From an uncultured delta proteobacterium (lineage in GTDB: Bacteria; Myxococcota; Myxococcia; Myxococcales; Anaeromyxobacteraceae), in NCBI GenBank assembly GCA_963828255.1, contig CAWHDZ010000011.1, positions 1 through 64,000 on the forward strand: 64,000 bases of DNA, read 5' to 3'. Every line of letters begins with the position of its first letter. The first letter of the stretch is position 1. The notes below the pieces were generated by a model, which searched no databases, was not told where the DNA came from, and saw only the letters and a list, made by a program, of their open reading frames with translations. This document shows, one piece after another, positions 3 to 22,609 of the stretch. The translations under genes and the position numbers were made by a program.

Positions 3-2313
3 CTAACGCCCTCCGCCGTGCCCTCCTCCTCCGCCGCGAGACGGGGCAGGGGCCCGGCCGGGTGGGGCCGCCCGTGACGGAGGAGGGCCTGCCCGGGACG
101 GAGGGGCGGCGCTCCGCTGCCTGGCGGCCGCGTCCCGCCCCAGCCCGGCGGGCGCGCTCGGGTAGGAGGGGCGGGTGGCCGGACGCGCCGACTGCTGCGG
201 AGCCGGGCGGGTCATCGGCTGCTGCGCCTGCGACGGGCGCGAGCGTCGGCTGCTGCTTCCACCCCTGCGAGGTGTTGCGGTCCCACGAGCCGCCGTCGTT
301 CTTCCGGTACACGTTGCCCTTCCTGTCGGCGTAGACGTTGTTGGGCCGGTTGGCGGGACGGGGCGCGGGCCGGGTCGACACCGGCGCGACCCGGTCCACG
401 TTGCGGGCCCTGTTCTCGGGACGGGCGTAGATGTTGTTGCTCCATCCGCCGCCCTGCCCGGAGGGTCGAGGAGGGGGAGGGCGGGCTCCACCCCCGACGG
501 GCGGACGGCCGCCGGGAGGCGGGGGGCGATACCCGTGTCCCGGGTACGGAGGACGGTACCCGGGAGGCGGCCGGTACCAACCCCCCGGGTAAGGGGGCGG
601 AAACGGGCGGTAGCCCGGTGGGCCCCACCATCCCGGGCCGTAGGACGGACCGAAGCGCATGCCCGAGTAGAAGAAGGGGGAACCGTAGCCGTACCCGAAG
701 CCGAAGCCGACCCAGGGGTTGAAGACCACGTTGAAGCCGTAGGTCACGGGGCGCGGGTAGTACACGCTGGGTCCGATGTACGGCGGATAGGAGAAGCCCG
801 TGCCGTACACCACGGTGCCGTAATACGGGTACATCCCGGTGTAGCCCGGCAGGTAGCCGACGTACACCGTCTCCGGGGTGGACTGGTACACGTACACGTA
901 CCGCGTGTTGTAGACCGGCGCGCTGGGCGGGACCTGGTCGATGTCGGGCGGGCGCTTGTCACTGACGGTCCAGGGGCCCCGGGGAGTCGGCGCCACGTAC
1001 CAGACCGCCTGCTCGCAGGCCCAGTACATCCCCGCGTCCCGGATGACCGAGGTGGGTGTGTTCACGGCGAAGGCCAGCGGGGTGCCCTCGATCGACTTGA
1101 AGCGAGGTTCGCCGTCGTAGGTCACCTGGAACTGCTGGTCACGCCTCACCGCGGTGGTCTGGGGGATCTGGCTGTCGGCCAGCGCGTCGTTGGCCTCCTC
1201 GGTGCCGGACACGAAGGTTCGGACCTGGCCCACCGGGGAGTCGGGGGGGAGGTTCGAGAACCCGCCGGGAAGCTGGTCGGGCCGGACGAAGGTCCAGGGC
1301 CCGGAGAGCGACTTCGACCGGAACCAGCGCCCGGAGGCCAGCACGTAGGTCTCGCCGGTGGGAACGTGGACCAGCACGTCGCGCTGGGTGTTCTCGGCGT
1401 AGAGCAGGTCGGCGTCGTCGCCGACCGGGACGTACCGGGGCGGTCCGTCGAAGACGAAGAGCTCGGTCGGCTCCGTGGCGACGAGCACCGCCGGCGGGGC
1501 AGTGGGCTCCTCGATCTCCCGCTCGGCGTCCTTCAGGGCCGTGTCGTCGCCGGCCCTGTCGGCGGGGGGCGGATGGGCGTCGAAGAACTGCTTCACCGCG
1601 GGTGACGGTGCGGCGACGGGGGCGAAGGGGCCGGTGGCGGCCTGCGCCTCGTACCAGAACGTGCCGCCGGAGAGGTACCAGCGGCGTGTCGCCGGGTCCT
1701 CCACCACGAACATGGGGGTGTTGACCACGCGCCGGAGGGAGGAGCCCGGGATGGGCTGCTCGACGGGCTTGCCGGCGTAGAGGAGCAGCACCGCCGGAAC
1801 GTTGGAGAAGCGCATCTTCGGCGGAGTGGACCGGAGCCCCTCCGAGGAGCGCTTCTCGGCCTGGGAGACCGCCAGGCTGGCCTGGATGGCGTCGAGCCCC
1901 ACCGTGAGATCCCACCTCGGTACCTCGGCCTCCAGGATGGTGGCCAGCTGCCGCTCCTCCTCCCTGGTGATGTTCGGGAAGCGGACCCTGTCCACCCGGA
2001 TGGTCTCCACCGTGGCGGTCCGGGCGTCGCGGTCGATCGAGGAGGTGGTGGTGAACCAGAGGACGCCGAAGACCGGGGCGCCTCCCTTCTCCGACCAGGA
2101 GACGGCGCTGCGCCCGGCCATGGTCACGCCCTCGAACTTCTCGACCTGGGGCTGGAAGATCTCCAGGACCCCGGCGCCGATCTGGAGGGTGCGGGGCCAG
2201 TCTCCCGGGAAGCCCTCCTCCTGGCTCGCGTCGGGTGGCGGCGGCGGAGGCGCCTGGGCGAAGGCCTGGATCGCGGAGGCGAGGAGGAGTGCTGCCAGTG
2301 CGGCCTTGCGCAT
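3..2313 (-). CDS. Large secreted protein of the type usually annotated 'carbohydrate-binding family V/XII'; apparent frameshift near 243 in the low-complexity C-terminal tail
   Basis: ATG at 2313 gives the signal peptide MRKAALAALLLASAIQAFAQ, then WPRTLQ..IFQPQVEKF, TPPKMRFSN and NNVYADRKGNVYR, all in one frame. It is missing from the ORF track because that frame has no stop before the window edge. The natural-looking tail (..RDAAARQRS..GGGGGHGGGR*) is in another frame ending at TAG 3-5. Confidence 0.75.
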   Translation of the reverse strand, partial: MRKAALAALLLASAIQAFAQAPPPPPPDASQEEGFPGDWPRTLQIGAGVLEIFQPQVEKFEGVTMAGRSAVSWSEKGGAPVFGVLWFTTTSSIDRDARTATVETIRVDRVRFPNITREEERQLATILEAEVPRWDLTVGLDAIQASLAVSQAEKRSSEGLRSTPPKMRFSNVPAVLLLYAGKPVEQPIPGSSLRRVVNTPMFVVEDPATRRWYLSGGTFWYEAQAATGPFAPVAAPSPAVKQFFDAHPPPADRAGDDTALKDAEREIEEPTAPPAVLVATEPTELFVFDGPPRYVPVGDDADLLYAENTQRDVLVHVPTGETYVLASGRWFRSKSLSGPWTFVRPDQLPGGFSNLPPDSPVGQVRTFVSGTEEANDALADSQIPQTTAVRRDQQFQVTYDGEPRFKSIEGTPLAFAVNTPTSVIRDAGMYWACEQAVWYVAPTPRGPWTVSDKRPPDIDQVPPSAPVYNTRYVYVYQSTPETVYVGYLPGYTGMYPYYGTVVYGTGFSYPPYIGPSVYYPRPVTYGFNVVFNPWVGFGFGYGYGSPFFYSGMRFGPSYGPGWWGPPGYRPFPPPYPGGWYRPPPGYRPPYPGHGYRPPPPGGRPPVGGGARPPPPRPSGQGGGWSNNIYARPENRARNVDRVAPVSTRPAPRPANRPNNVYADRKGNVYRKNDGGSWDRNTSQGWKQQPTLAPVAGAAADDPPGSAAVGASGHPPLLPERARRAGAGRGRQAAERRPSVPGRPSSVTGGPTRPGPCPVSRRRRRARRRAL

Positions 2314-2364
2314 CGGGAAAGTGTATCGCCGGGGAAGTGGGCCGACGATTGCCATTCGGACGCG

Positions 2365-2961
2365 TCAGCCGCCCCGTTTCTTCTTGGCCTTCCTGGGGGG
2401 TGCGGGAGCAGGCTCGCCGGCGACCCGGAACGGCGCGACCAGGGGCTCGAAGGTGCGCCCGTCATCCGATATCACCAGCCGGTTCTCCAGACCCTCGAGC
2501 CGGAGGACGTGGCGGCTTCCGGGAGGGAGCGGCTCGAGCGGGACCAGGGTGAACCGGGAGGTCGTCCCGACCTCGGCGTCGGCGCTCGACGGAACCATGG
2601 CGTCGCGTGCGTCGAGGAGCACCAGGCGCGCGCCGCGGGCGGCGAAGGGAAGGCGGACCTCGAAGGTGGAGCCGGGGTCCACCAGGGGCGGCGCGGAGCC
2701 GGCGCCCTGGAGCGGCATCGCCGTGACGCCGAAGCGTGCCTCGACCGCGGTGACGGGAAGGCCCTGGGGCGGGAGCGGAATGGCCGGCTCGGCCGGCGCG
2801 GCTGGACCGCTGCCTGCGGCGGGTGCGCTGGGTGCGGCGGCGGGGGGCGTCGCCGTGCTGGTCTGTGGGCTCGGCCTCGTGCAGCCGGAAATCAGGAGCC
2901 CAAGCAGGCCAGCCAGAGTCCGATAATGTATATTATGTAAACTGAGACCGGGGACGGTCAT
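2365..2961 (-). CDS. Lipoprotein with Pro/Ala linker and Ig-like beta-sandwich domain
   Basis: Lipobox LISG-C after a hydrophobic stretch. ATG at 2961 overlaps the merR-type stop as ATGA. High GC3 codon use after the N-terminus. Confidence 0.7.
   Translation of the reverse strand: MTVPGLSLHNIHYRTLAGLLGLLISGCTRPSPQTSTATPPAAAPSAPAAGSGPAAPAEPAIPLPPQGLPVTAVEARFGVTAMPLQGAGSAPPLVDPGSTFEVRLPFAARGARLVLLDARDAMVPSSADAEVGTTSRFTLVPLEPLPPGSRHVLRLEGLENRLVISDDGRTFEPLVAPFRVAGEPAPAPPRKAKKKRGG
2916..2943 (+). other. dif: dif site (XerCD chromosome dimer resolution)
   Basis: GAGTCCGATAA-TGTATA-TTATGTAAACT in 11-6-11 layout. The 16-nt core ATAATGTATATTATGT is identical to E. coli dif. Strongly AT-rich island in a GC-rich genome. 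Confidence 0.93.
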
Positions 2962-3503
2962 GCGTGCGAACGGCTCGCCTCTTCGACGTCCCGCGGGGGC
3001 TGGTTGGCCGCCCCCGACGAGCGCGCGAGGTGCACTCCCCCGCACTCACCGGTTCGGGCCAGGACCCGGACGATGCGCGGTGAGCCGTCGCGGGAAGCCA
3101 CCGTGCACGGGCACGGGACGGTGGAAGGATCGGAGACCTCCTCCGCCACCGACGAGAGCGCCTGCCGCATCTCCGCCTCGAGCCGGCGGAGCCGCTCGAT
3201 GCGGTTGCGGGCCTGGGCCACATGGGCTGGAAGCCGGTCGCGGAGCAGCTTCCGGAACTCGACGGCGTTGCGGCACCCTGCCCGCATCGCCAGCATGGCC
3301 CGGATATCGGGGATGGACAGGCCGAGCTCGCGGAAGTCGAGGATGAGCTGGAGCTGCTCGAGCGTCGCCCGGTCGTACCGGCGGTGGCCACCCTCGCTCA
3401 CGGCGATGGGGTGCAGGAGCCCCTGCTCCTCGTAGAAACGCACCGTGCGGACGGTCTCTCCCGTCGCCCGGGCCAGGTCTCCAGAGGTGAACACGCGCTC
3501 CAT
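2958..3503 (-). CDS. MerR family transcriptional regulator with C-terminal cysteines
   Basis: MERVFTSGDLARATGETVRTVRFYEEQGLL..GGHRRY..FRELGLSIPDIR HTH signature. Cys residues in AGCRN, PCPC and GECG. Confidence 0.9.
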   Translation of the reverse strand: MERVFTSGDLARATGETVRTVRFYEEQGLLHPIAVSEGGHRRYDRATLEQLQLILDFRELGLSIPDIRAMLAMRAGCRNAVEFRKLLRDRLPAHVAQARNRIERLRRLEAEMRQALSSVAEEVSDPSTVPCPCTVASRDGSPRIVRVLARTGECGGVHLARSSGAANQPPRDVEEASRSHA

Positions 3504-3567
3504 GCAGGATTTGCTAATGGCGCGGTGGTCTGGATGCAACGATCGTTGACGCCCGCTGGCGTCGCGG

Positions 3568-4713
3568 TCAGCCCTGGGAGAGCAGGTGCCGGGCGATGAC
3601 CATCCGCTGGATCTCGCTGGTTCCCTCGTAGATGGTCTGGACCCGGGCGTCCCGGAAGAGCCGCTCCACCGGGAACTCGCCGATGTACCCATACCCTCCG
3701 TGAATCTGAACGGCCCTGGACACGGCCACCTGCGCCGCCTCGCTGGCGAAGAGCTTGGCCATGGCCGCCTCCTGGCCGAAGGGCTGGCCGGCCTCCTTGA
3801 GCGCGGCGGCGCGCAGGGCCATGAGCCGGGAGGCGTCGTGGGCCGTGCGCATGTCGGCGATGGCGAAGGCCACCGCCTGGAACGCCGCGATGGGCTGCCC
3901 GAAGGCCTTCCGCTCCCGGGCGTAGCGGGCCGAGGCGTCGAGCGCGGCACGGATGGTCCCGGTGGCCTGGGAGGCGATGCCGATGCGCCCCCCGTCGAGC
4001 GCCGCCAGCGCCACCCGGAGGCCGTGGCCGACCTGCCCCAGCACCGCCGACGCCGGGATCGCGCAGTCCTCGAAGGTGAGCGAGACGGTGCTCGAGGAGC
4101 GGATGCCCATCTTCTCCTCGAGGCGCCCCACCACGAGGCCCGGCGTCCCGCCCTCGACGAGGAAGGCGGTGATGCCGCGGTTCCCGGCCCCCACGTCGGT
4201 GCGGGCCCAGACGATGATCACCCCGGCCCGATCGCCGCTGGTGATCCACTGCTTCGTTCCGTTCAGGACGAAGCGGTCTCCCCGGAGGTCGGCCCGGGTG
4301 GTCATCGAGTTGGGGTCGCTGCCGGCCTGTGGCTCGGAGAGGCCGAACGACCCGGCCAGCCACTCCCCGGAGGCGAGGAGCGGCAGGCAGCGGCCCTTCT
4401 GGTCGTCGGTGCCGAACCGGGCGATGGTCTCGCCCACCATGTTGGTGACCGCCATGGTCACGGCGAGCGAGCAGTCGGCCCGCGCCACCTCCATCACGGC
4501 CATGGCGTAGGCCACCGCTCCCGCCTCCGAGCCCCCGAAGGCGGAGGGGACGTTCACCGCGAGGAGGCCCAGCTGGCCGAGCTCGCGCACCAGCCCCTCC
4601 GGGAAGCGTCCGGTGCGGTCTGCCGCGGCGGCGGCGGGCTCGGCGCGCTCGGTGGCGAACGTGCGGGCCGCAGCCGCGACGGCCTGCTGGACCTCGGTCC
4701 CGTCGAAGTCCAA
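3568..4713 (-). CDS. Acyl-CoA dehydrogenase
   Basis: FGLSEPQAGSD, LNGTKQWIT, GGRIGIASQA and QIHGGYGY..IYEGTSEIQR motifs. Confidence 0.95.
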   Translation of the reverse strand: MDFDGTEVQQAVAAAARTFATERAEPAAAAADRTGRFPEGLVRELGQLGLLAVNVPSAFGGSEAGAVAYAMAVMEVARADCSLAVTMAVTNMVGETIARFGTDDQKGRCLPLLASGEWLAGSFGLSEPQAGSDPNSMTTRADLRGDRFVLNGTKQWITSGDRAGVIIVWARTDVGAGNRGITAFLVEGGTPGLVVGRLEEKMGIRSSSTVSLTFEDCAIPASAVLGQVGHGLRVALAALDGGRIGIASQATGTIRAALDASARYARERKAFGQPIAAFQAVAFAIADMRTAHDASRLMALRAAALKEAGQPFGQEAAMAKLFASEAAQVAVSRAVQIHGGYGYIGEFPVERLFRDARVQTIYEGTSEIQRMVIARHLLSQG

Positions 4714-4717
4714 CGGG

Positions 4718-5860
4718 CTAGCCCCTGAGGACGCTCGAGGCGATCACCAGCCGCTGGATCTCGCTCGTCCCCTCGTAGATCGCGGTGATGCGGCTGTCGC
4801 GCCAGTGGCGCTCCACGTCGTACTCCTTCACGTAGCCGTACCCGCCGTGAACCTGGATGGCCTTGGAGGTGACCCGCTCGCACATCTCCGACGCGTAGAG
4901 CTTGGCCATGGCGCTCTCCGCGCTGTGGCGCACACCCCGGTCCTTGAGCCAGGCGGCCCGCCACACCAGCAGCCGGGCGGCGTCGATCTCGGTGGCCATG
5001 TCGGCCAGCATGAACTGGATGGCCTGGAACTGGGTGATGGGCTGGCCGAAGGCCTTGCGCTCCCTGGCGTAGGCCACCGCCTCCTCGTAGGCCGCCTGGG
5101 CGATTCCCAGCGCCTGGGCGGCGATGCCGATCCGGCCGCCGTCGAGGGTCTGCATGGCCACCTTGAACCCCTCCCCCTCCCCGCCCAGCCGGAAGCGCTC
5201 GGGCAGGACCACGTCCTCGAAGAAGAGGGTGCAGGAGCCCGAGGCCCGGATGCCCACCTTCTCGTCCGGCTTGCCGCGGGTGAAGCCCTTCACCGATCCG
5301 GGAACCAGGAAGGCGCTCACCCCCTTGGACCCCTTCGAGCGGTCGGTCACCGCGAAGACCAGGACCACGTCCGCCTGCGGTCCGTTGGTGATGAAGTTCT
5401 TGGTGCCGTTCAGGACGTACTCGTTTCCCTTCTTCTCGGCGACGGTGCGCATCTCGGCCGCGTCGGATCCGCTGGTGGGCTCGGTGAGGGCGAAGGCTCC
5501 CAGCCGCTCCCCGCGGGCGAAGGGGATCAGGAAGTCGAGCTTCTGGTCGGGGGTGCCGAACTTGTAGACCGGATCGCAGTAGAGGGAGTTGTTGACGCTC
5601 AGGATCACGCCGGTGCCGGCGCAGCCGCGCGAGATCTCCTCCATGGCCACCGCGTAGCTGACGTTGTCCATGCCGGCGCCGCCCAGCTCGGTGGGGATGG
5701 CGACCCCGAGGAGCCCCATGTCGGCGAGCTTCCTCACCGCGTCGGCCGGGAACTGGTGGGCCACGTCCCAGCGCCGGGCGTTGGGGCGGAGCTCGGAGTC
5801 GGCGAACTGCCTGCAGAGCTCCCGGACCTGGCGCTGCTCGTCGTTGAGCTGGGTGTCCAT
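4718..5860 (-). CDS. Acyl-CoA dehydrogenase (short-chain/butyryl-CoA type)
   Basis: FALTEPTSGSD, LNGTKNFITNG and QVHGGYGY..IYEGTSEIQR motifs. Confidence 0.95.
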   Translation of the reverse strand: MDTQLNDEQRQVRELCRQFADSELRPNARRWDVAHQFPADAVRKLADMGLLGVAIPTELGGAGMDNVSYAVAMEEISRGCAGTGVILSVNNSLYCDPVYKFGTPDQKLDFLIPFARGERLGAFALTEPTSGSDAAEMRTVAEKKGNEYVLNGTKNFITNGPQADVVLVFAVTDRSKGSKGVSAFLVPGSVKGFTRGKPDEKVGIRASGSCTLFFEDVVLPERFRLGGEGEGFKVAMQTLDGGRIGIAAQALGIAQAAYEEAVAYARERKAFGQPITQFQAIQFMLADMATEIDAARLLVWRAAWLKDRGVRHSAESAMAKLYASEMCERVTSKAIQVHGGYGYVKEYDVERHWRDSRITAIYEGTSEIQRLVIASSVLRG

Positions 5861-6687: not shown

Positions 6688-7542
6688 TCAGGCGTACTTG
6701 TGGAATCCGCGACCCGACTTCCGGCCGAGCCAGCCCGCCGCCACGTACTGCCGCAGGAGGGCGGCCGGGCGGTACTTGTCCTCGCCGAGTTCCCGGTGAA
6801 GGACGTCGGCGATGAAGAGGCAGGTGTCGAGGCCGATGAAGTCGGCCAGGGTGAGCGGCCCCATGGGGTGGTTCAGGCCCAACTTCACACCGGTGTCGAT
6901 GTCCTCCGGCGTGGCCAGCCCCTCCTGGAGGGCGAAGCAGGCCTCGTTGATGAGCGGGATGAGGACGCGGTTCACGATGAACCCGGGGACGTCCTTCGAG
7001 GTCACGGTGGTCTTGCCGAAGGTCTTCGTGGCCAGGTCCACCACGGTGGTCCAGGTCCCGTCGCTGGTCTGCAGGCCGCGGATGATCTCGATGAGCTGCA
7101 TCACAGGCGGCGGGTTCATGAAGTGCATGCCGATGAACTGGCCGGGACGCTTCGTCGCGGCGGCCAGCTGGGTGATGGAGATGGAGCTGGTGTTGGAGGC
7201 CAGGATGGCGTGGGGCGGGAGCAGCGCGTCGAGCCTCCGGAGGAGCTCCACCTTGGGCTCCACCCTCTCGACGATGGCCTCGATGGCCAGGTCGGATCCG
7301 GCTGCGGCGTCCACCGCGTCGGCCGGGTGGATCCGGTCGAGGATCCCCTGTCGCGCCTCGGCGGTGATCTTCCCCTTCTCGACGAGCTTCTGGAGGGATG
7401 CGCCCAGCTTGCCGTGGGCTTTCACCGCCAGTCCGGGGACGGCGTCGAGGAGCGTGACGGTGAGGCCGGATTGCGCCGCAACCTGGGCGATGCCGCTGCC
7501 CATCTGCCCTGCGCCGACGACTGCGATGCGCTGGATCGCCAT
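6688..7542 (-). CDS. hbd: 3-hydroxybutyryl-CoA dehydrogenase
   Basis: VVGAGQMGSGIA Rossmann fold, ASNTSSISI, GMHFMNP, HPMGPL. Start at MAIQRI after a GGAG RBS. Confidence 0.93.
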   Translation of the reverse strand: MAIQRIAVVGAGQMGSGIAQVAAQSGLTVTLLDAVPGLAVKAHGKLGASLQKLVEKGKITAEARQGILDRIHPADAVDAAAGSDLAIEAIVERVEPKVELLRRLDALLPPHAILASNTSSISITQLAAATKRPGQFIGMHFMNPPPVMQLIEIIRGLQTSDGTWTTVVDLATKTFGKTTVTSKDVPGFIVNRVLIPLINEACFALQEGLATPEDIDTGVKLGLNHPMGPLTLADFIGLDTCLFIADVLHRELGEDKYRPAALLRQYVAAGWLGRKSGRGFHKYA

Positions 7543-21679: not shown

Positions 21680-22609
21680 TCAGGCCCGCGGGTGGTGCCG
21701 GGAGTGCAGCCGGCGGGCCTGGGTCCGGTCCACGTGGGTGTAGATCTCGGTGGTCGAGACGTCGGCGTGGCCGAGCATGGCCTGGACCGCGCGCAGGTCG
21801 GCGCCCCCCTCGAGCAGGTGGGTGGCGAAGCTGTGCCGGAGCTTGTGCGGGGAGACGCGGCGGGTGATCCCGGCGGCGCGGGCGTAGCGGCCGAGCAGCT
21901 TCCAGAACCCCTGGCGGGTCATCCGGCGCCCGAGCGGCGTGACGAAGAGGTCGCGGCTGCGGCGCAGGCGCAGCACCCGCTCCCGGGGACCGGCGAGCCA
22001 GGCGCGCAGGGCGTCGGCGGCGGGGGCGCCCACCGGGACGAGCCGCTCCTTGTTCCCCTTCCCCCGGGCCAGCAGGACCCGGGACTCGAGGTCCACCTGA
22101 TTCACCTCGAGCGTGACGAGCTCGGAGACCCGCAGGCCGGTGGCGTAGAGCAGCTCGAGCATGGCCCGGTCGCGGATCCCGGCCGGTCCGCGCGCCTGGC
22201 GCGGCGCGGCCAGCAGCCGGTCCACCTCGTCGCGGGAGAGAAGCTGGGGGAGCTTGCGTGTGCGGCGGGGGGCGTCCACCTCGTCGGTGGGATTGGCCCG
22301 GGCCACCCGCTCGGAGAGGAGCAGGCGGTGCAGGCCGCGGATGGCCGAGAGCGCCCGGGCCTGGCTGCGCGGGGCGATGCCTTCCCTGGCCAGCGCGCCC
22401 AGGTGCGCCTGGACGTCCTGGCGGGAGACCTCGTCCCAGGATCTCCGCCCCGTCGCCGACAGGAAATCCATGTACCGGCGCACGTCCCGGCCGTAGGACT
22501 CGACCGAGTTCCTGGCCAGACCCTTCTCGACGCGCAGGTGGGCGAGGAAGAGGTCGAGCGCCGGGGTGAGCGGTCCCCCCTCGGCGCCCGGGGGCTCGCG
22601 GCGGGCCAT
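21680..22609 (-). CDS. xerD: Site-specific tyrosine recombinase XerD
   Basis: [61 protein letters not shown]. Confidence 0.95.

Follow-up and report, generated by a model that had tools for sequence, protein, structure and literature searches.

We have found a chromosomal dif site that lies in frame inside an ORF for a predicted lipoprotein in the genome of an uncultured member of the Anaeromyxobacteraceae (G000). The ORF is likely translated from an ATG at position 2961 of the window (the whole 64,000-nt stretch of DNA that was analysed), in which case the same bases would act as a recombination site and as codons 7–16 of the gene. We put the probability of this reading, drawn from the sequence and its comparison among relatives, at about 0.8. 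The features concerned are collected in Table 1.

Table 1. Positions of the features discussed, counted from the first letter of the window.
Feature	Position	Strand	Remarks
Lipoprotein ORF, 198 aa	2365..2961	-	Predicted signal peptide 1-26, putative lipobox Cys27, Pro/Ala linker, Ig-like beta-sandwich (about 68-185), basic tail
h-region and putative lipobox, codons 16-27	2881..2916	-	Immediately next to dif, the spacing being 39 nt shorter than the commonest
Chromosomal dif (likely)	2916..2943	+	XerC arm 2916-2926, centre 2927-2932, XerD arm 2933-2943
Sigma-70-like match	2932..2961	-	-35-like hexamer at the ATG, 18-nt spacer, -10-like hexamer inside dif; probably incidental
ATGA overlap	2958..2961	-	merR stop and proposed lipoprotein start; its first A is the third base of the rare Ala codon GCA
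MerR-family regulator	2958..3503	-	Pfam MerR_1, E 2.9e-20; conserved on the XerD-arm side of dif
xerD	21683..22552	-	TIGR02225, 354.5 bits, over cut-off; 19 kb from dif

The dif site and the replication terminus

The 28-mer GAGTCCGATAATGTATATTATGTAAACT at 2916–2943 has the 11-6-11 layout of dif, with two 11-bp arms, a 6-bp centre and an inner inverted repeat. It is the single match in the 4.31-Mb, 40-contig genome when up to 6 mismatches are allowed over the 22 arm positions, and its core, ATAA-N6-TTAT, has no second occurrence in the genome. Genomes of the same genus each contain exactly one dif (13/13); the family dif pattern matches 83 of 92 genomes, and a reversed control pattern gave zero matches. 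Aligned to the published dif of Myxococcus xanthus (PMC2731167, Table 1), the XerD arm is identical at 11 of 11 positions and the XerC arm at 9 of 11. This is likely the chromosomal dif, the predicted target of XerCD in chromosome dimer resolution. The original prediction had placed a 28-bp dif in codons 7–16 of a lipoprotein ORF, and this was borne out by layout, uniqueness and frame.

The site is 2.9 kb from the end of its contig (C11) in a genome of 40 contigs. Because GC skew within the window was too noisy to locate the terminus, the KOPS motif GGGNAGGG was taken as terminus marker, with forward/reverse counts made for 100 kb on each side of the orthologous dif in two relatives. The counts were 50/3 on the left and 6/39 on the right in G013, and 27/4 and 4/35 in G009; in both, the switch falls within the 20-kb bin that contains dif. 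For G000 itself the count to the right of dif on C11 is 29/115, and contig C24, which adjoins dif on the left by synteny with G013 and G009, gives 10/1. A KOPS change-point scan of G000 revealed no strong rival convergence; above a 2dLL of 8 there were only C34 (4/0, then 25/65; 2dLL 9.8) and a divergent switch on C10. A better dif at the true terminus, which would have spoken against the site considered here, was not found, the match being unique and the scan showing no strong competitor.

Components of the machinery are encoded in the same genome. Besides xerD, there is a xerC-like gene on C12 (best match 329.5 bits, just below the cut-off of 335.15) and an ftsK gene on C30 with an FtsK gamma domain over cut-off. 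We also observed two full-length dnaA matches with near-equal scores (C6:31055-32356 and C10:17877-19178); the assembly lists 6.6% contamination.

The reading frame through dif

On the minus strand, the candidate ATG (2961–2959) overlaps the merR stop, dif spans codons 7–15 and the first base of codon 16, and codon 27 (2883–2881) is the Cys of a putative lipobox (Sec/SPII), preceded by an 11-residue hydrophobic core. The distance from the end of dif to this Cys is 32 nt in G000 versus 71 nt in most relatives. Between dif and Cys there is no ATG or GTG, as had been claimed, and no TTG. The sole near-cognate codon that would give a signal of at least 11 residues is CTG at codon 16; the resulting signal would have 11 residues and no charge, and the codon has no Shine-Dalgarno match. 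No Shine-Dalgarno sequence was found at the usual distance before ATG 2961. An in-frame GTG at 3045, inside merR, was considered as a start and rejected; it is not conserved, an in-frame stop standing two codons ahead of the ATG in G011, L076 and L086. The start proposed from the ATGA overlap, 2961, is the best candidate, a prediction backed by the relatives described below. Charge in an n-region read from 2961 would come from His9, His12 and Arg14, all encoded by dif; read from CTG16 there would be none. Arg14, encoded by the XerC arm, is the only Arg or Lys before the hydrophobic core in G000; both arm variants are common in the family, so that selection on it is not evident.

The codons that dif imposes are rare, as the original prediction had stated. 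In a reference set made of the final 150 codons from each of 3,219 coding-like ORFs of G000, TTA makes <0.05% of Leu codons, ATA 0.4% of Ile, AGT 0.9% of Ser and ACT 1.3%, with TAT at 3.8%, AAT at 5.2% and CAT at 5.6%; all but one of the nine full dif codons are rare in this genome. A tRNA-Leu(TAA) gene is present. RNA contigs from four metatranscriptome runs, compared with positions 2200–4800, gave near-identical pieces on parts of merR in three runs; no piece among those listed spans dif with 31 bases on each side, and the contigs speak to neither start nor expression. Downstream of the lipoprotein, at 1–2355 on the minus strand, lies the gene of a large Pro-rich protein whose N-terminus resembles a signal and which has no Pfam match; at the DNA level this region is similar to regions on C23 and C3.

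An upstream ATG in the dif frame, 6 (or 10) codons before dif, is present in 10 of 14 genomes of the genus, and in nine of these ten the frame runs open across dif as far as the lipobox and Ig domain. The exception, G004, has the ATG, with the lipobox one base off frame and the gene in three pieces amid five intact neighbours; this break fits either gene decay or a sequencing error, and the close relative L117 is intact. The dif site is therefore inside the lipoprotein ORF in 9–10 of the 14 genomes. In the four ATG-less ones, the gene moved away or started after dif. Another gene, which from its sequence we take to be a sigma-54-type regulator, stands between dif and the lipoprotein in G001, where the lipoprotein GTG overlaps the stop of that gene. 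A convergent gene follows dif in G007, whose lipoprotein lies elsewhere with its own ATG. The G012 lipoprotein starts after dif in another frame, its spacer also being longer by a multiple of three (21 nt) without read-through, and that of G008 has its own ATG, a TGA in the XerD arm of the dif variant ending merR. We noted that merR of G008 (L006/L195) had lost its own stop, so that dif overlaps the end of merR instead. Start codon, frame and stop-free dif variant are kept together and lost together across the genus.

Searching metagenomes with a pattern for dif alone gave 87 stretches, 14 of them from this locus. Among these 14, several of which are near-duplicates, 11 have the ATG and an in-frame lipobox, one ends 18 nt after dif, and the remaining two have no ATG and another gene after dif, like G007. 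The ORF of L102 stops 84 codons after dif and has no Ig-domain match. The convergent gene that replaces the lipoprotein beside dif in G007 (L005), L095 and L135 ends with a CxxCH-type motif, and we presume from the motif that it likely encodes a c-type cytochrome. A comparison of homologous proteins found the dif peptide close to the N-terminus in 22 of 70 database homologues, the G000 protein included, in most of them at residue 7, the Cys being residue 40; because gene callers chose those starts, the figure speaks for an open frame rather than for translation. P0004–P0006, 73–81% identical to the protein studied here, are, as protein sequences, called with starts after the dif position.

Some dif variants bring a stop into this frame (G008, G014, G026, G033 and G051), and in each of these genomes the gene has a start beyond dif; G026 has an upstream GTG, but a stop inside dif follows. 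None of the 10 adjacent loci without an upstream start codon (G008, G012, G014, G026, G028, G033, G041, G048, G051 and G078) is open through dif. The lipoprotein frame relative to the dif frame is mixed among these loci, and where the two coincide a stop intervenes. Outside the genus dif is intergenic and usually parted from the gene by insertions on the lipoprotein side. In G034 (another genus; L025/L204), a TTG overlaps the merR stop six codons before an open dif frame and the lipobox is one base off; if this shift is a sequencing error, a second genus has the same arrangement, and if it is real, the gene lacks a start.

Length changes within the genus keep the frame. The observed dif-to-Cys spacings of 32, 44, 71, 74, 77 and 92 nt all belong to one frame, and the ATG-to-dif distance is 18 or 30 nt, the 12-nt gains having arisen in three ways (G009/L110, L128/L138 and L111). 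Five of the length changes are beyond explanation by a downstream start, with a chance of about (1/3)^5 = 0.004, a figure to be read with the relatives being non-independent observations. Neither a canonical nor a near-cognate start stands between dif and the hydrophobic core in G009; the only candidates there are a CTG in G000 and L124 and a CTG or ATC in L128, which would give uncharged signals of 11–12 residues. The 39-nt deletion of the G000 lineage is known from this assembly and from P0003, which shares the short form; a separate 27-nt loss removed the native n-region in L128/L138/P0035. The claim that the n-region is written by dif accordingly holds for G000, P0003 and L128/L138/P0035, where deletions took the native n-region, and fails for most relatives, in which dif lies in an extension ahead of a K/R-containing n-region with Cys at residue 40.

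The stop/start overlap of the merR–lipoprotein pair appears, from its codons, to be under selection. GCA makes up 3.2% of Ala codons in gene bodies of this genome, and the ATG requires it as the terminal Ala codon of merR. Five neighbouring genes have 150 conserved Ala columns, and GCA is kept in at least 90% of sequences in only three of these columns, the merR-terminal codon included; the other two are codons 7 and 11 near the start of the 3-hydroxyacyl-CoA dehydrogenase gene (window 6688–7542). GCA has become GCC in G001, G007, G012, L095 and L135, where the upstream ATG is no longer needed. In L111 the duplicated inner copy, off the merR stop, became CTG, and the copy at the new merR stop is still ATG. 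As the last Ala codon GCA occurs in 36 of 118 overlap-type gene ends versus 15 of 172 others. L124 retains the ATG although merR is gone, and in G009/L110 a merR deletion put the old merR start in frame with the lipoprotein; since the ATG outlives merR in these cases, coupling to merR is not the sole way in which it can be used. The shortened merR of L102 still overlaps its stop with the lipoprotein start.

Origin of the arrangement and alternative readings

A single clade of ATG-bearing genomes was rejected (AU p 1.5e-5; at least 2 changes; ML tree). The tree was rebuilt without one acyl-CoA dehydrogenase (absent in G006, with a paralogue in the column), and the AU test was run without G033 and G028. 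Because the trees nest ATG-less genomes inside ATG-bearing ones, the ATG-less states are read as losses.

In the wider order, dif is intergenic, about 60–260 nt ahead of the gene's own start. In the genus ancestor, the last merR codon and the stop would have formed an in-frame ATGA six codons before dif, at which translation likely re-initiated, the start thereby shifting upstream across dif. The old start, five or six codons after dif, may then have decayed, so that the gene came to depend on reading through dif and dif became part of a cleaved N-terminal extension. A further loss of 39 nt would have taken the native n-region in the G000 lineage. The cost is likely low: the peptide would be removed by cleavage at Cys27, most sequences are tolerated in an n-region, and tRNAs exist for the rare codons. 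Any element that integrates at dif would be expected to separate the start from the gene body, and the lineage would then need a new start, such as G001 and G007 have.

The dif site could instead belong to a 5′ UTR, with translation starting after it at a near-cognate codon or GTG and the upstream ATG and open frame surviving as relics; we consider this improbable. Five or six codons after dif there is CTG in G002, G003, G013 and L145, GTG in L102 and ATG in L111, from which well-formed signals of 19–20 residues would result, positively charged in all but L145, and gene callers picked such starts for P0004–P0006 and P0012. GC3 around dif is low (0.53 for ATG-to-dif codons and 0.69 for post-dif codons of relatives; 0.90 for codons 2–6 of 209 coupled G000 genes), and an intergenic dif is the rule in the surveys (PMC2731167, PMC3025954). 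However, the position is not kept as a start, being CTG, ACG, GCG, GCC or GGA in most relatives and GTG or ATG in few; G009 has no candidate at all, and G000 only the short uncharged one. Starts after dif also leave unexplained the 12-nt in-frame gains, the retention of GCA and its loss where another start exists. A post-dif codon may serve as a second start in some relatives. A different account of the fixed 18-nt spacing dispenses with translation and makes the hexamer at the ATG a −35 and that inside dif a −10 of a promoter. It draws on a sigma-70-like match of 9/12, the one such match in 1.8 kb (shuffles 0.0 ± 0.1), and on the recurrence of the spacing in most genus members, G034 and G026, yet it is very unlikely, given that the TGA of the hexamer is the merR stop and that A or C at the first hexamer position score alike, which leaves the ATG/CTG covariation unexplained. 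Furthermore, the match drops to 2/6 in G009, L110, L128 and L138, all of which keep the frame, and mostly reaches 1–3/6 in other genera, and a transcript from inside dif would have no usable start in G000.

The 39-nt deletion might also have killed expression or export, the ORF of the G000 lineage being a decaying relic. The eight rare codons, with the nearly unused TTA among them, and the short hydrophobic core would fit such decay, and G004 and L102 show that the gene can break; still, we rate it as highly improbable. The ORF is intact, and the domain dN/dS, by simple counting, is 0.23–0.50 against nine relatives and 0.38 against the sister G010; by these sequence comparisons the lipoprotein gene is under purifying selection. 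P0003 shares the deletion, yet retains 121 of 131 residues of the domain and 24 of 27 of the signal, compared with 26 of 40 of the linker. Finally, a homologue is found in 86 of 92 family genomes, essentially in single copy. In sum, the comparative evidence favours dual coding of dif and the signal peptide. Weighing against it are the off-frame lipoboxes of G004 and G034, the longer spacer of G012, the early end of the L102 ORF, the missing Shine-Dalgarno sequence, the low GC3 and the candidate starts after dif in relatives.

The product is most likely a lipid-anchored envelope protein with an Ig-like domain, as predicted from sequence and model. AlphaFold gives an Ig-like beta-sandwich (pLDDT 93), whose nearest fold is an alpha-amylase N-domain (Z 10.4), followed by CopC-like domains (VIA Z 9.8) with an rmsd of 2.5–3.2 A over 93–99 residues at 11–21% identity and a Foldseek E of 6e-4 to 5icu. 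Pfam and PDB sequence searches assigned no family; the profile of Pfam Big_5 (PF13205), with which the fold agrees, matched 2 of 50 members, at a best E of 0.014. The lipobox Cys is conserved in full-length homologues. No His or Met is among their invariant or nearly invariant columns, and these are the residues that bind copper in CopC; because neither is conserved, a CopC copper chaperone was rejected and the protein was not filed as CopC.

On shared contigs, the gene lies on the XerC-arm side of dif and points away from it in 13/13 genus genomes and 40 of 41 others. Across the 54 genomes with both on one contig, it is at most 41 kb from dif on the XerC side in 53, with G019 having the gene on the other side. 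Beyond the family, several Myxococcales have the lipoprotein gene directly after dif. The Ig-like lipoprotein may have a function linked to the terminus.

Insertions at dif and comparison with known sites

The dif and the gene are within 1 kb of each other in 12 of 13 genus genomes and adjacent in 6 of 41 genomes outside the genus. The distance from dif end to gene end is 1.2–41 kb in 34 of 40 genomes outside the genus versus 1 of 13 inside. G027 (L232) has, 12.6 kb from dif towards the lipoprotein, a repeat of the dif centre and XerC arm together with a degenerate XerD arm; the 12.6-kb insert, with 15 ORFs and only weak SLT and beta-helix matches, is, to judge by this repeat, likely an element integrated by Xer. 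A dif remnant beside the displaced gene was clear in one (G027) and weak in one (G100) of 25 loci examined, with no dif-arm remnant found in G001 or G018; most inserts in relatives have no recognisable remnant. Several dif-like sites per genome were seen in other genomes, with 17 in G039, six in G083 and several in G111, G071 and G088, the last having two identical sites 26 kb apart; such multiplicity suggests Xer-using mobile modules.

Artificial in-frame lacZ–dif fusions in Vibrio cholerae, as described in PMC9226527 and bioRxiv 10.64898/2026.06.12.731946, leave the gene active and dimer resolution working; the reporters are blue and turn white on integration at dif (PMC9226527). By analogy with this colour change, and with the G027 insert lying on the lipoprotein side, integration at dif would split the gene from its start, as had been proposed. 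The companion suggestion, that XerCD occupancy throttles transcription, found no support, and the activity of the fusions would, by the same analogy, speak against it. An in-gene dif might guard an integration hotspot, keeping the dif of the genus clean, and XerCD/FtsK at division may gate expression. We regard this idea as doubtful and offer it as a hypothesis, because the related genomes are non-independent and most inserts lack a remnant.

If the reading is true, one stretch of 28 bases acts both in recombination and as protein code, a combination that is rare in bacteria, and the genus is a natural experiment on a dif captured by a gene. The case would show how a gene can take in a strictly constrained chromosome site by way of a stop/start overlap, the cleaved signal peptide being a tolerant host. 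Transcription through dif and XerCD/FtsK, and the restriction of mobile elements by an in-gene dif, become testable in a natural setting. Methods that confine dif searches to non-coding DNA, or gene callers that skip AT-rich starts, would mis-call such a locus.

The dif sites of M. xanthus and A. dehalogenans were reported by Carnoy and Roten 2009 (PMC2731167). In Table S1 of that paper the A. dehalogenans dif has a MerR gene at 158 bp, and the M. xanthus dif a putative lipoprotein at 102 bp. The site described here shares the 28-bp layout and the neighbours; both published sites are intergenic, whereas here dif is inside the lipoprotein ORF. Sites inside a CDS have been counted before, with 6 of 161 in PMC2731167 and about 6% in Kono et al. 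2011 (PMC3025954); the hosts are mostly hypothetical proteins and phage ORFs, with one transporter, and the sections consulted give no frame-translation test. Those are per-genome annotation counts, in contrast to the genus-wide, frame-keeping arrangement with paired loss of the start and a signal peptide as host. In the literature covered, which represents subscription journals thinly and in which the site list of Kono et al. may hold comparable cases, we found no natural lineage-wide in-gene dif with evolutionary support and none in a signal peptide. The lacZ–dif reporters likewise have dif in frame in a translated gene; they are artificial and placed in an enzyme, whereas the present case, read from sequence, is natural, heritable and in a signal peptide. 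The integrative elements of the IMEX type (CTX, TLC), as treated in PMC9226527, leave a remnant on one side of dif, new dif sites arising on one side of the integrated element; the G027 insert does likewise, 12.6 kb off, whereas the dif of G000 has no integrated element. As to the product, the protein shares the common beta-sandwich of CopC, SbsC and Big_5-type Ig-like domains, and differs from them in its predicted lipid anchoring through a Pro/Ala linker and in its low sequence identity.
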